Of a stretch of 19,489 nt of DNA, positions 9,001 to 18,000 are shown piece by piece. Origin of the DNA: Armatimonadota bacterium. Lineage in GTDB: Bacteria; Armatimonadota; Armatimonadia; Armatimonadales; Armatimonadaceae. A program made the position numbers. The DNA lies in assembly GCA_043754515.1 (NCBI GenBank), contig JAYUUO010000010.1, positions 1-19,489 on the forward strand. The letters are read 5' to 3'. Numbering within the stretch: position 1 is the first letter of the stretch; every line of letters begins with the position of its first letter.

Positions 9001-12000
9001 TACTCCTCGTATGTCATCGGGCGTGTGATGCCGGGGATCTCGGTGCCGTGTGCTTTCCTGTTGTCCGCGTGTACATTTCCTCTCGGTTTTTTCACGGATG
9101 CGATTGCCATTGATCTTGCTCCTTGTAACCGGATCGTACTACCAGGAACGGGCGGGGAGCGGAAACGAACCCTTATGCTCATCTCCGCTCCCCGCCCGAG
9201 CCTACTTCGTCACTTCGCGCACATCCACGAGTCGGCCCGCGATAGCCGCCGCCGCCGCCATCACGGGCGAGACGAGGTGCGTGCGCCCGCCCTTTCCCTG
9301 GCGCCCCTCGAAGTTGCGGTTCGACGTGGATGCGCAACGCTCGCCGGGTTGCAATATATCCGGGTTCATGCCCAGACACATCGAGCAACCGGGTTCGCGC
9401 CACTCGAAACCGGCGGACAGGAACACCTTATCCAGTCCCTCCTCCTCGGCCTGACGCTTCACCGGGTAGGAGCCGGGGACACACAACGCGCGTAGTCCCG
9501 CCTTTACTTTTTTGCCCGCCAGTATCGCCGCCGCCGCACGCAAGTCCTCGATGCGGCCATTCGTGCAGGAACCGATGAACACCGTATCCAGCACGATGTC
9601 GGTGATCCTTTGCCCCGGCGTCAATCCCATATATTCCAGTGCTCGCTCTACGGAGCGTCGGTCGGCGGGGTCGGCGTATTCGGACGGGTGCGGTACCGAG
9701 CCTGTTATCGGGGCGACCTGTCCGGGCGAGGTCCCCCAGGAGACGTGCGGCGCGATCTCGTCGGCGTGGAGTGCGATCTGTGTGTCGAAGGTCGCGCCCT
9801 CGTCGGTACGCAGGCCTTCCCATGCCGCGATGGCCTCGTCCCAAGCCGCGCCCGTCGGGATATGGGGACGGCCCGCGAGGTACGCCCACGTCTTCTCGTC
9901 CGGCGCGATCATCCCCGCCCGTGCCCCGGCCTCAATGCTCATGTTGCACACCGTCATGCGCCCCTCCATCGAAAGAGCGCGAATCACCTCGCCCGCGTAT
10001 TCGACTACGTAGCCGGTCGCGCCGTCGGTACCGATCTTGCCGATGATGGCGAGAATGACATCTTTCGCGGTCACGCCCGGCCCGAGTTTGCCGTCCACCG
10101 TGATGCGCATTGTTTTGGGAAGTGACTGCGGCAGACACTGCGTGGCGAGCACATGCTCCACCTCCGACGTCCCGATGCCGAAGGCGAGCGCGCCGAACGC
10201 GCCGTGCGTGGAGGTATGGGAGTCGCCGCAGACGATGGTCATCCCCGGTTGCGTCAGGCCGAGTTCCGGCCCGATCACATGTACGATCCCCTGCTTGGGG
10301 GAATGGATGTCGTAGAGCGTGATGCCGAACTCGCGGCAGTTACTTGCTAGCGTCTCCATCTGGAGACGGGAGATGTCATCCGCGATCGGCAGGGAGCGGC
10401 TGGTCGTCGGGACGTTGTGATCCATCGTCGCGACGGTCCGCGCCGGGCGGCGCACGGCACGGTCGGTGAGGCGTAATCCCTCGAACGCTTGCGGCGAGGT
10501 GACTTCATGAACCAGATGTAGGTCTATATACAGGAGCGCGGGCTGTCCGGCCTCCTCGCGAACGAGATGGGCGTGCCATATCTTCTCAAACAGCGTCTTC
10601 GGCATAGCAGGGCTTCTTTCACGCCCGGCTAGCCGGGCGAAACGGATTCTATGTCGTGATTATACGCCATGCGCGCTGCCTAAGTCCAACTGATAACTTC
10701 CATATAGTTGATAGGTTTTACCTATGAAAAAGCAGCATATTCGCGTCTGCGGCGCACATGCGCTCAGGCCAGGGCGCGACTATCGCGCCGCCGCGACGGT
10801 GATTACCGAACAACCCATCGCGGAAGATACTTCCCTAACGGACGCGGCGGCTCGCCTCAGGAGCGGCGCGGGCGCGAACTCCCCGCCTCGTGCCACCGTG
10901 AGCAGTTCGTTCACGGAGCGGCCTGCATTGGGATATACGGCGACGCCGACGCACGCGACAAACTCCTCGCCCTCGGCGGCACCACAGGCGATCAGAATAT
11001 CTTCGAGGCGGGTAGCCGTCTCCCGCGCCTGCGTGTCATTTTGTTGCGGCATGAACAGGACGAAGTCGTCGGGCCGTCCGTCCACTCTTCCCGCCACATC
11101 CACTTTGCGGATCGCCGCGCTTACGGTTTGCCCGATCCGGTGGAGGAGTGCCTCGCGGCGCAACCCGCGTTCCGGCACCCCCCCCAGCGAGATGTAAAGT
11201 AGCGCGCACTCTCGGTTTTCCCGCGCCGACCGTGCCAAAGCCTCCCCGAAGCGCGCGGTCGCGTATGATGGGGCTAGTAGCCCGGTGCTAGGACAGGTGA
11301 GGGTGGAGGGGGCGGACTGGGCGCGGGTGCGATCCCGCACCTCCGCGTCGCCCATAATGCGCTTAAGTTTCCCAGTGGCGTTCTTGAGGATGTGCGACAC
11401 GTAGTTGCAGGAGATGCCGAACTGTTTGGCGATCTCGGTCTGGCTGTGGTCTTGGTAAAAGAACTCGAACAGCACCTTCTGCTCCAACTCCTTAAGCTTC
11501 AGCACCGCGTTCTCCAGCACGATCCGATCTTCTATCGGCAATTGCAACGTGACGTACTTGTCCGATCGTATCTTCTCCGGGTCAACGAGACCGATGGTAG
11601 CGTCGCCGTCCTCGGCCGCCGACCCAAAGGCGGAGACCTGGAAGGTCTGGCGAGTCGAGATTATCTCGTCAACCGCCTCCTCCGTCAGGTTTAGGACACG
11701 CGCGACTTCCTCCGTCTGTGGGGCGCGACCGAGTTCCACGGTGAGCGCGTCGGTAGTGCGCGATATCTTGACGGAGATCTCATGGAGCCACGCCGGCTCC
11801 TTGATTATCTTGCCCCTGTCTCGGAGGAAGTGACGGATGGCACCGGCGACGAAGTGGGTGGCATAGGTGCTAAACTTGATCTTCCGTTGCGGCTCTTTTT
11901 GCGCAGTGCGCTCCGGGTCGTAGTGGTCGAGCGCGGACAGGAGGCCCAGGAAGCCTTCCTGCACTAGATCCTCGAACGGCTCGCCCGAGCCGACGAAGCG

Positions 12001-15000: not shown

Positions 15001-18000
15001 ACGAGTATTATCGAGCCGATGTTGATCGTTTTTATGGGCGTCATCGTCGGGTTCATCGCCATCTCCATCATGGGGCCGATGTTCAAACTAGTGTCGTCTA
15101 TCAACTAGCCTCGTGGGGCGGGAGATGATCCGCTCTCCCGCTCCTTTCCCATCCCACCGCCACGGCGGACGCGGTAATTCCCCTCCTGATCCCCGGCGAG
15201 TGTTGAATATCTTACTATGGCACGGTTCTTGCTTGTGAACGGGTAATGGCGCGGGTATCATCGTAGTGGCACGCAACAAAACGTTCCCATACTCATAGTC
15301 CGCTTTTGCTGGGAGTTGCCTTGATGTTCAGACCAGAAAAAAAAATTACGAAGGCTTTCCCCCTCCTCGGGGCACGCTCGGGGCTCACTATCCTCGGTGC
15401 TTTTGCCGTCCTTATATCCCTCCTTGCTGGTTGCGGCGGGTCGGGCGGGGGCACACCTGTGGCGACTCCGACGCCAACCCCTACGCCTGTCGCGCCCCCG
15501 ACTCCGGTGCCGCCCGCGGCCGGTAGCGCGCTGGATCGCACGATGCGGTCGAACTTCTCCCCGAATTACATCCCGAGCGACGCGAGCCGGTATCTGCGCT
15601 GGGCGGACAACAAAAAACTGCGCGTATTTATTCACGCGGGAGTCAACAACATCAAGGATAATGTCCCGGCACCGACGTTACCGGATGACGCCGTCCGCGC
15701 CCTCGTTCGCCAATCGCTCGACCTGTGGACGGCGCAGACCGGGGGAGATTTCCTTTTCACGCTGGTGGACGACGTGGCGAACTCAGACATCGAGATCTAT
15801 TTCGTGACCGATGTTCGCCGTCTGAACGGCACGACTTCCAGCGGTCTGGGCGTGACCAACTACTCGTTCTTTTACCCGGATGTAACCGACACGGCGCACG
15901 CGGTATTGAAAAAATCGGTCATTCAGGTGAGGGCGGATCAGAGTGCCGATGGACTCCTGGACGTCACTGCCCACGAATTCGGCCACGCGCTCGGAATCGA
16001 AAAGCACAGTCTGGATGATAATGACCTGATGTTCGCGACGAGCATCCCCCCGGCCGCGATTACCCAGCGCGACCAGAACACGCTCTTTTACCTGTACTAC
16101 TCGCCGACTGCACTCGGCGGTGCCTCGAAAGCGGCGCGTGGTCGGCACGGGGTGTATATCAGTGAGCTAATATGCGGTGACCGGACGCGGGGACACTAGT
16201 GTCGGCGGAGTCGGTACTTCTCCGTGCCGATTTCTCCTCCAGAAAACGCGAGCATTGACCGATAATGATGAGGTAAACATAAGTATGCCGTGGATTATTC
16301 ATTTCGCCTTTCTTGCTCCGTCAGGGTAGTTCGTGCACATATTCTAAGATCGCTCAACGAGGTTATTCAATTGATCGCACGCAAATTGTTCCCGAGTTCG
16401 TTCGCGTCGGCACCGCGCCGTTCCGTAATCGCATCCGCTGTCGCCGTCAGCCTTCTACTGGCGGGGTGTGGGGGCGGTGCCACTGGCGGGTCTTCCGCGC
16501 CCGTGGCATCCGATAGCCGCGCGTCTTTACCCGACGCCGTCTCCCGGTCGTTCGCTCCGAACTACGATTCACGGATTGAGTCGCACGGGATCTGGCGCGG
16601 CAGGACGCTCCGCGTCTTCTTTCCAGGGGACGCCGATGCCGCGGTGGGTTCCGCCGCCCTAACGCGCTGGGAGGAGGCGACCGGCGGGTTCTTCCACTGG
16701 GAGCGCGCCCCGACGTCCGACACCGCGCAAGTCTCCTTTAATCTGGTCGGGACGGACACCTTCGAGCCGGGCGTGGTCGGCAAGACGCATTACGCGTACG
16801 ACGCGTCTAAGAACGAGTTGACGAGTGCCGATGTGCGGATAGCCCGGTCTGGCCCTGTCTCGGATCAGGTCGCGACCGCCGTTCACGAGCTCGGCCATGC
16901 TTTGGGTATTCACGGCCACAGCGATGCTACCTCGGATATGATGTTCGCCTCGCTCACCTCGCAGAGCGTAATCACGGAGCGGGACTTGAATACGTTATTT
17001 TACCTGTACCGCGATTCCGAGTCCGGCGTAGTAACTCCAGGACGCGCCGTGCACATGATCAACGTCACGATCGAATGCGGCGCGTCCCGGTAGCCCCTAC
17101 CAGCGCGGCGAGTGGTTTGGCCCCGCTTCGGCGGACAGTTCGGCGACGACGCGGGCGAACTCGCCGGTGAGTCTGCCTAAGCCGGGATGCGTTCGCGTCA
17201 CGGCGGCGGCTTGATAGGCCCCCGCGAGGGCCTCGTAATACCGGAGCGTCTCATCCCGCCCCGGCTTGAACCGCGACCACAAGCCCGCCTCGGCGGCTCC
17301 GGCGTCCGCCGCCCCCTTCGCCGCCCGCAGATCGTCTAATATAGCCTGCGCGTTGTGCCGTTTATCCGACGCGGAGACCAGAAGTACGCTCACGCTCTCG
17401 CTGGGCAGATGCCGGACGTAGGTTTCCTTCCGACCCCGCCATGTCAGTAGTGGGGTGCCGTCCTCGGCGAGGCTCCAGCGGTCGCCGTCCGTACAGGCGG
17501 CGACTATGTGGGCGACGTCCGGCCCGAACCGCGCCTCAATGTCCGCTAGCCGGGGTAAGCCGCCCTGATCCTCGACCGCGTCGTGCAGTAGCGCGGCGGT
17601 CGCCTCCGTCTCCCCACCACCGTGTTCTAGCACGAGAGCGGTGACACCGAGTAGATGCGCGACGTAGGGGATCGCGGGACTGCCCGGCCCCCCGACGCCT
17701 TGGGTGCCTTTGCGAATCTGGGTCGCGTGCAAACCCGTGGCGTACGCGAGTGCCTCCGTAAAGCGTGATCCGAGCGGGAGATAATCCGTCATGGTTGGTG
17801 CCTTTGTTCGTTTAGTCGACGCGGTTGCCCCGCCGTGCTTTTATCCGGGGATATGCTTCTGTATTATCACGGCGGGGGGTACCCGACCACCGCGCTCGCG
17901 ATATAATGGGCGAATGAGTTCTTACGGTAATCAGGGCGAAGAAGTGATCGTATTGGGGGCGGGTATGGCGGGGAGCGAAGCGGCGTGGCAAGCCGCGCGG

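Follow-up and report, generated by a model that had tools for sequence, protein, structure and literature searches.

We analyzed a window of 19,489 nucleotides from an Armatimonadota bacterium (contig JAYUUO010000010.1, positions 1 to 19,489). An intact open reading frame on the minus strand (10780..12219) encodes a 479-amino-acid protein that joins regions 2, 3, and 4 of a SigB/F-type sigma factor to a degenerate GGDEF domain, as an earlier note on this DNA had described. Besides NCBIfam matches, the Pfam matches are Sigma70_r2 (residues 62–137), Sigma70_r3 (150–192), Sigma70_r4 (241–286), and GGDEF (357–443; 28.9 bits, with a cut-off of 23.8). The reading frame starts with GTG, and there is an alternative ATG at residue 14. 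Divergent from the fusion gene are pilT (12479..13789, plus strand; TIGR01420, 479 bits), for the type IV pilus retraction ATPase, and pilC (13900..15108, plus strand), for the pilus platform protein; profile matches and genome comparison identify it as the type of PilC that accompanies the major pilin. Our profile searches also recovered two PilB proteins with Pfam's MshEN domain and four proteins with an intact GG[DE]EF motif elsewhere in the genome, in agreement with the note.

The sigma part belongs to group 3 of the sigma70 family: regions 2, 3, and 4 score above the Pfam cut-offs and region 1.1 is absent. Its best sequence matches are to SigB/SigF/SigG (TIGR02980, SigBFG, is the best NCBIfam match), and it shares the region 2-3-4 layout of these proteins, which include the solved SigB of S. 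aureus (PDB 8x6g). However, it scores just 156 bits on TIGR02980, below the cut-off of 234.35 (five relatives score 173–194 bits), and it differs in having an added C-terminal domain, altered residues in regions 2.4 and 4.2, and a clade of its own. Region 2 (residues 62–137; 11809..12036, minus strand) contains a family-specific region 2.4, YATH..G..RH.LRD and then II(K/R)(E/Q)PAW (from Pfam, the alignment, and the tree). In region 4 (residues 241–286; 11362..11499, minus strand), the recognition helix is SCNYVSH where SigB has SQMHVSR (from Pfam, the alignment, and the structure model). Two hallmarks of SigB, the SQMHVSR helix and adjoining rsbW/rsbV genes, are thus missing. Alignments show that the sigma core and the DNA-reading segments are conserved among the fusions, with family-specific residues. 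In a tree of sigma factors (in which row P0237 was trimmed at an incorrect position and three rows were left out), the fusions are separate from the genome's own RsbV-RsbW-SigB sigma factor, which had been reported as a distinct locus and which we located as STAS, HATPase, and SigB genes on contig C213. The fusion is not a FliA/WhiG protein either (86 bits on TIGR02479, with a cut-off of 189.6); the genome's FliA/WhiG is a different gene. A fold search with the whole-protein model returned mainly sigma factors. The full-length model (pTM 0.46) does not fix the arrangement of the domains; in the model, a predicted helix of region 4 (residues 271–302) continues into the GGDEF domain.

The degenerate GGDEF domain spans residues 309–446, approximately (10882..11295, minus strand). 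Modelled alone, it has a pLDDT of 92 and matches solved GGDEF domains with Z scores of 16.5–20.1 (rmsd 1.8–3.2 Å over 139–149 residues). The best-described matches are 4urg (Z 20.1, rmsd 2.0 Å, 142 aligned residues) and PleD (1w25; Z 18.5). It does not have the motifs of an active diguanylate cyclase: VDGRPDDF stands where GGDEF would be, GG[DE]EF is found in 0/90 fusion domains versus 40/45 control cyclases from the phylum, and DxDxFK in 0/90 versus 44/45. The primary I-site motif RxxD (R371-K-V-D374; 11098..11109, minus strand) is present in all 90 fusion domains. RxxD is also common in the control cyclases (38/45), so it could be inherited. As described in the available portion of PMC3838380, RxxD cross-links c-di-GMP only with a second arginine. 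Two candidates for such accessory arginines are each present in 88/90 fusion domains: R404 (11008..11010, minus strand), which our alignment and a cited paper place at the position of R249 in DgcB and R390 in PleD, and R330, which, judging from residue offsets and a fold match, would be at the secondary I-site position. R330 lies on a helix face (R323-E326-R330-R333; 11221..11253, minus strand) whose four residues occur together in 83/90 fusion domains but in only 7/45 control cyclases.

This conservation holds although identity between the GGDEF domains of different members falls to 18–60%. Among 64 full-length representatives (50% clustering), R371 is conserved in 58, D374 in 62, R404 in 59, R330 in 58, R333 in 46, and E326 in 43. 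The earlier description of an invariant I-site is therefore correct for close members, but some deep members have lost R371. Two other claims need adjusting: E327 was said to be invariant in 120 homologs, but position 327 is A in this protein, and across the 120 it is E in 102 and A in 14; and PF00990 was said to be in all 120, while our hand count among the matches listed gave 106 of 120. The loss of GG[DE]EF with retention of RxxD agrees with the note. As judged from these sequences, a putative c-di-GMP pocket is retained after the loss of catalysis. A complex prediction with two GGDEF domains and two c-di-GMP gave a score of 0.04 and a mark of 0.42, and weighs on neither side.

SgmT and CdgA are receptors that bind via the I-site of a degenerate GGDEF domain. 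PopA and PelD are similar: as far as the available parts of PMC12564702 and PMC3838380 describe them, their active sites are dead and RxxD and accessory arginines are kept. With its predicted GGDEF fold and its RxxD, third, and secondary-site arginines, the fusion's domain resembles this type of receptor. Receptors of this type act on proteolysis, the synthesis of polysaccharides, or the activity of kinases, and those parts of the two papers describe no sigma fusion among them. PopA acts on CtrA as a proteolysis adaptor (PMC12564702, in the part available), which raises the possibility that c-di-GMP binds the fusion's domain but acts through a partner (via proteolysis, polar localization, or capture by a cyclase or an anti-sigma factor), while the sigma factor still reads the pilin and flagellin promoter that is described below. 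The conserved helix face could be a protein interface, and the loose full-length model would accommodate this. On the other hand, a single domain holds both halves of the cross-linking site, and among 80 GTDB loci (with clusters read by eye and partly annotated), the frequent neighbors of the fusion are pil genes and we found no recurrent partner-like gene. We consider action through a partner to be unlikely.

After setting aside 10 of the 80 loci with short flanks, pilT or pilC lies within 2.5 kb of the fusion gene in 47/70 loci (37 co-directional and 10 divergent), and 23 are unlinked. The presence of PilT does not discriminate the carriers of the fusion, as it was found in 80/80 genomes, carriers and non-carriers alike. 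The PilC type that is linked to the fusion is missing from carriers of families f8, f27, f5, and f10.

A shared upstream sigma factor probably underlies the linkage to pil genes, because a FliA/WhiG-type promoter (motif 1) persists where the fusion is absent. This motif was found de novo (log-likelihood of 157 versus 28–33 for shuffled sequences) and precedes the fusion gene, pilT-pilC, and pilM-Q-pilB. It resembles the -35 TAAA/-10 GCCGATAA consensus in the available part of PMC8325347. The site facing the fusion gene (12278..12306, minus strand) has TCCGATAAT as its -10 and a weak -35, and it scores 13.6 with its own site excluded from training. The site facing pilT-pilC (12385..12413, plus strand), TGATG-N15-ACCGAAAAT, scores 13.4. 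Motif 1 remains before pilT in one non-carrier that has FliA, and it precedes flagellins in 9/24 non-carriers. It was not found before the three genes that we inspected from families f5 and f10, where FliA is absent. Upstream of the fusion gene there is also a tentative sigma54-like element, GG-N10-GC (12250..12264, minus strand), which is kept in the 4 closest of 12 loci.

The proposed link to pili calls for revision: pilT or pilC often adjoins the fusion gene, but the adjoining pilT-pilC genes appear, from their upstream sequences, to be read by FliA/WhiG and not by the fusion. We disfavor an action of the fusion sigma on them: there is no notable site for the second motif between the genes, and in one genome motif 1 is still there although the fusion is absent.

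Judging from upstream sequences, the fusion sigma probably acts on genes in other parts of the genome: those for major pilins and some of those for flagellins. A second promoter motif (motif 2), TGT(G/T)AA-N13-YRTGG(A/C)A, lies before major pilin genes in 13/18 held-out carriers versus 1/16 non-carriers, with a chance rate of 4/2661 upstream regions. The lone non-carrier with a strong site, G132, is a 330-contig assembly, and the other members of its genus are mostly carriers. When trained on pilins alone, motif 2 also finds flagellins, in 7/25 carriers versus 0/24 genomes without the fusion. No site scores 15 or higher in 9/22 training carriers and 5/18 held-out carriers. The pilin site in this genome scores only 9.3, which 60/2661 upstream regions reach, and the genome's best match falls within a gene. 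There is no genome-wide excess here (31 matches at a score of 16, versus 34–42 for wrong-spacer controls), and a genome-wide scan of carriers gave no clear enrichment. Among 20 pattern matches picked from carriers in f8, f27, f10, and f5 were two flagellins, one response regulator, and one pilin-like gene; for most of the 20 we recognized no common target. We did not find a pilin of the motif-2 type in the three f5 and f10 carriers that were tested; carriers in these families also lack FlhA and FliA. A search for RNA runs returned only contig-level runs of short pieces, one of which is probably DNA, and yielded no evidence of expression or of start sites.

Because the support for motif 2 is co-occurrence and the site in this genome is weak, we considered whether motif 2 might be read by another sigma factor or transcription factor that was lost with the motility module, while the fusion acts on other genes or itself reads motif 1. 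ECF and group 2 sigma factors remain candidates for such a reader. The ordinary SigB was excluded in three near-complete carriers (G105, G129, and G217), which have motif 2 and no other SigB-type sigma factor; also, non-carriers with SigB lack motif 2 before their pilins. The spacing and the GG-containing -10 box of motif 2 presumably resemble SigB/F-type promoters, which we count against another reader. As for motif 1, it remains where the fusion is missing, and we did not find it before the three inspected f5 and f10 genes, from families without FliA. Overall, a different reader of motif 2 seems rather improbable.

The fusion was described as phylum-wide, which is an overstatement: roughly two thirds of sampled genomes carry it, it is missing from entire families, and in one lineage the GGDEF domain was lost. 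By hand count, 287/401 genomes from the phylum have a best match to the fusion at E ≤ 1e-60, and 18 of these are from a family in which the single member that we inspected has no GGDEF domain. In family f31, the sigma factor was kept and the GGDEF domain dropped, and two cyclase-like genes remain. Among the matches listed, named homologs are from Armatimonadota or have no phylum label, except for two metagenome-assembled genomes labeled Fibrella and Cytophagales, which we assume are mislabeled. Nine of ten distant clusters of homologs have no taxon name. FlhA was lost together with the fusion in f8, f27, f22, f11, and f26. We rejected a role in the flagellum only, given that neither this genome nor the carriers in f1, f5, and f10 have FlhA.

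At least two GGDEF matches (E ≤ 1e-30) were found in 31/31 carriers (median 8) versus 11/45 non-carriers, 20 of which have none and 14 of which have one. The count is higher in carriers in all nine mixed families. These genomes were picked by their sigma status and relatives are not independent, and the co-occurrence may stem from loss of the whole motility module. The idea of a GGDEF domain that acts without a ligand, as a structural or dimerization module with pocket residues inherited from an ancestral cyclase, fits the frequency of RxxD in ordinary cyclases and the loss of the domain in f31 despite its two cyclase-like genes, but it is quite improbable given that R371, D374, R404, and R330 remain in 88–90 of 90 divergent domains, that YfiN lacks the equivalents of exactly R404 and R330, and that none of the 31 carriers is without cyclases. 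The core of the earlier note, that this sigma factor itself carries a c-di-GMP pocket, is strengthened by the primary and secondary arginines that outlast catalysis and by the cyclase-like genes that carriers always have.

We think it likely that the fusion functions as an alternative sigma factor, that it contains its own receptor domain for c-di-GMP, and that it stands at the end of a motility cascade, from FliA to the fusion to filament subunits, that would be gated by c-di-GMP. As the promoter sequences suggest, FliA/WhiG would transcribe pilM-Q-B, pilT-C, and the fusion gene. From genome comparisons, the fusion sigma probably reads TGT(G/T)AA-N13(12-14)-YRTGG(A/C)A(G/A)AA and has a very small regulon, chiefly major pilins and, in flagellated lineages, one flagellin paralog. 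Conservation makes it highly probable that dimeric c-di-GMP would be bound by R371, D374, and R404 together with an arginine that a second domain contributes from its R330/R333 helix. We guess that this cross-link locks the sigma factor into dimers unable to engage RNA polymerase, which would stop the synthesis of filament subunits at high c-di-GMP; activation by c-di-GMP is nearly as likely. More tentatively, the fusion might be a one-component switch of transcription initiation that has the binding site for c-di-GMP within its own chain, needs no anti-sigma factor, and reads an undescribed class of promoters for major pilins and an alternative flagellin, with the level of c-di-GMP choosing between two sets of subunits, one under FliA and one under the fusion.

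ECF sigma factors with regulatory C-terminal extensions include ECF41, ECF42, and the copper-sensing CorE. There too, a regulatory domain is fused to a sigma factor and replaces an anti-sigma factor, but those are group 4 sigma factors, and no extended ECF sigma is known to sense a nucleotide second messenger. Nor is cyanobacterial SigF known to have a ligand domain. In the available part of PMC6495340, SigF acts on pilA at the end of a SigJ-SigC-SigF cascade. By analogy, the fusion would be a late SigB/F-type sigma factor with a tiny major-pilin regulon, with an earlier sigma factor acting on other motility genes. It differs in that its upstream sigma factor would be of the FliA/WhiG type and its promoter is unlike the J-box, GGGaAtacT. 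The RsiG-(c-di-GMP)2-WhiG switch of Streptomyces and Rubrobacter (PMC8325347 and PMC12871210, each in the part available; see also PMC7005675) also routes c-di-GMP control through a group 3 sigma factor, and WhiG's targets in Rubrobacter include type IV pilus genes. There, the ligand is on a separate coiled-coil anti-sigma factor and the sigma factor is of the FliA type; here, a putative GGDEF I-site pocket is fused to a SigB/F-type sigma factor that would act downstream of a FliA-type one. According to the available part of PMC8325347, no sigma-anti-sigma complex other than RsiG-WhiG is known to be a target of c-di-GMP.

We found no description of a sigma-GGDEF fusion in the literature that we searched (mostly non-subscription journals, excluding supplements). 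The candidate promoter and target genes make the idea of a c-di-GMP-sensing sigma factor directly testable, and if the fusion functions with a heterologous polymerase, it would be a single-gene reporter for c-di-GMP. The one way described for c-di-GMP to reach a sigma factor runs through the separate anti-sigma factor RsiG; a pocket on the sigma factor's own chain would be simpler and differently built, and most of this little-studied phylum would have kept it. With sigma factor and pocket on one chain, and a probable promoter before pilus and flagellum subunits, a single protein may serve as the sensor of the messenger and as the switch for filament production.

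The gene at 10780-12219 (minus strand) encodes a protein of 479 amino acids with sigma70 regions 2, 3, and 4 and a weak match to GGDEF at residues 357-443. A profile built from 66 of the C-terminal domains could be matched along roughly 145 residues to GGDEF proteins of known structure, and the predicted structure of the C-terminal domain (pLDDT 92) aligned with solved GGDEF proteins at Z = 16.5-20.1. The domain matches and the predicted fold bear out the architecture described in an earlier note. In the full-length predicted model, a helix (271-302) joins region 4 directly to the GGDEF domain, and the domain arrangement is not fixed (pTM 0.46). 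The fusion is real and combines known parts in a new variant; we found no description of it in the literature that we searched.

We compared 90 domains of this family (from GTDB loci) with 45 ordinary GGDEF domains from the phylum (40 from the top and bottom of the list of matches, and 5 from the window genome). The catalytic motifs are lost: as the earlier note had claimed, GG[DE]EF is absent from the fusions (0/90 vs. 40/45), and so is DxDxFK (0/90 vs. 44/45). The pocket is retained: RxxD (R371/D374) is present in 90/90 (vs. 38/45), the third arginine R404 in 88/90 (vs. 36/45), R330 in 88/90 (vs. 34/45), and R323, E326, R330, and R333 together in 83/90 (vs. 7/45). RxxD had been called invariant, which is true of the GTDB loci but not of 64 full-length representatives from a wider search (R371 in 58, D374 in 62, R404 in 59, and R333 in 46). 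Also, E327 does not belong in the conserved set, as the window protein has alanine there. By residue offset, R333 falls on R198 of WspR, and R330 probably corresponds to position 273 of YfiN. YfiN is described as a non-binder with D273 and N351 at the places of the pocket arginines, and the same source states that RxxD is insufficient without a second arginine (PMC3838380). R371, D374, and R404 match, by their spacing, the binding residues reported for DgcB (R218, D221, and R249; PMC6733907). We infer that the fusion domain binds c-di-GMP.

The fusion was proposed to be phylum-wide. By hand count at E <= 1e-60, whether or not the match extends through GGDEF, 287 of 401 genomes of the phylum have a matching protein and 114 do not, including 8 of 24 in the window genome's own family and all of families f14, f17, f20, f24, and f32. 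Some sister proteins with the sigma part only are labelled Actinomycetota. Members from f5 and f10 retain RxxD. The one f31 member that we inspected has 290 amino acids and no GGDEF domain; in a tree, the f31 sigma lies within the fusion clade, adjoining f10 (support 100/97), so the domain was lost in f31. This GGDEF-less ortholog (P0220, locus L114 of genome G064) provides a naturally occurring control for what the domain does. In P0152, P0216, and P0217, the C-terminal part becomes out-of-frame-looking sequence, probably due to frameshifts or assembly errors.

In the window, pilT (12479-13789) and pilC (13900-15108) are divergent from the fusion gene, as in 10 of 80 loci. In 37 loci, the fusion gene lies behind pilC in the same direction, often as pilQ-pilB-pilT-pilC-sigma. 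The reported adjacency to pilC and pilT breaks down in 23 unlinked loci, mostly titled Chthonomonadales; the other 10 were too short to judge. We also examined 80 genomes picked for their sigma status: 31 carriers, 45 non-carriers, and 4 from f31. Each of the 31 carriers has two or more GGDEF matches (E <= 1e-30), with a median of 8, vs. a median of 1 in the 45 non-carriers, 20 of which have none, and GGDEF content is higher in carriers in 9/9 mixed families. PilT was present in all 80 genomes of a slightly different set, carriers or not. FlhA was lost along with the fusion in several families, and was not found in f1, f5, f10, or the window genome. The linked type of PilC and the short major pilin were not found in carriers of f8, f27, f5, or f10, and FliA/WhiG is in 26/26 carriers outside of f5 and f10 and 0/5 inside. 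Cyclase content is the sole constant companion of the fusion.

Two promoter motifs emerged. After removing near-duplicates (110 to 76), an unguided search upstream of the 43 non-operon genes gave TAAAG-N15-GGCAATAAT/TCCGACAAT (motif 1), which fits 31/42 and resembles the flagellar consensus given in PMC8325347. In divergent loci, it points both ways, with scores of at least 13 towards pilT in 11/12 and towards the sigma gene in 10/12 (L005 and L088, among these 12, are identical in sequence). It heads the operon at clear scores in 3 of 9 operon regions, heads pilM in the window genome, remains upstream of pilT in a non-carrier (G012), and precedes flagellins in non-carriers. The window genome keeps FliA/WhiG despite being non-flagellated, and motif 1 is best assigned to this sigma factor. 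The FliA/WhiG gene of this genome, which has neither FlhA nor flagellin, lies directly upstream of a PAS-GGDEF-HD-type gene (contig C36, 36080-39430; L119) whose GGDEF is degenerate (IGPDEF) with RxxD. Separately, in several of the unlinked loci (L014, L022, L028, and L035), a common leader segment with CGTACGATGGGAACGAAGGCGC, or a variant of it, lies between the promoter and the sigma start codon and is possibly an RNA element.

Motif 2, TGT(G/T)AA-N13-YRTGG(A/C)A(G/A)AA, is found in carriers upstream of homologs of three short pilins that are in tandem in the window genome (contig C306). That genome has 71 ORFs with prepilin motifs, spread over many contigs; 48 have an H-X-DGH pattern, most are 220-320 amino acids, and only the C306 genes are of the short major-pilin type. 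Motif 2 was seen by eye and was also recovered by unguided search (log-likelihood 153 vs. 97-105 for shuffled sequences). Leaving each genome out of training, pilin sites scored 15 or more in 13/22 training carriers, and in 13/18 held-out carriers vs. 1/16 non-carriers. (Of 34 held-out carriers searched, 23 had a pilin at threshold and 18 a scorable region.) The single non-carrier is a fragmented assembly, in which no trace of the fusion gene was found, from a genus that mostly carries it. With the pilin-trained matrix, flagellins have motif 2 in 7/25 carriers vs. 0/24 fusion-less genomes (three from f31). The Fisher p values (1e-4 and 0.01) overstate the significance of these differences because the genomes are related; the chance rate was 4/2661 regions. 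G036 (L351/L376) and G261 (L354/L378) each have two flagellin paralogs, one with motif 2 and the other with motif 1. Three genomes (G105, G129, and G217) have no SigB-type sigma besides the fusion. Against motif 2 as the output, the window genome's own pilin site scores just 9.3, strong pilin sites are mostly absent in carriers of f2, f26, and some of f1, and genome-wide scans found no excess. Motif 2 is probably the output promoter of the fusion sigma. Its proposed regulon would be tiny, as in the precedent of Nostoc SigF and pilA described in PMC6495340.

Beyond pilC, the window encodes a tandem pair of Matrixin-domain (M10) proteins (15306-16199 and 16290-17093, plus strand), whose N-termini resemble those of lipoproteins. 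A near-consensus sigma54 site (15218-15232, plus strand) lies upstream of the first, and the second has a motif-1 site (score 14.3) in front of it, at 16238. RpoN is encoded in the genome, where strict sigma54 sites number 29, vs. 2 at the wrong spacing. A stand-alone HD_4 domain protein (17097-17792, minus strand) adjoins a GidA-family (TrmFO-like) gene.

How might c-di-GMP act? Our guess, held by a narrow preference, is that it would cross-link fusion domains and so shut off the sigma factor. We favor this because the site for cross-linking is retained in both its halves, and because pilA is transcribed less at high c-di-GMP in Myxococcus and, in Rubrobacter, binding by RsiG blocks WhiG (PMC8325347). 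The other possibility is that c-di-GMP activates transcription of filament subunits. The same system's PilB bears MshEN, and PilB proteins with this domain are activated by c-di-GMP, which points away from shut-off. Shut-off is still the direction that we favor, and the fusion sigma is now open to direct testing.
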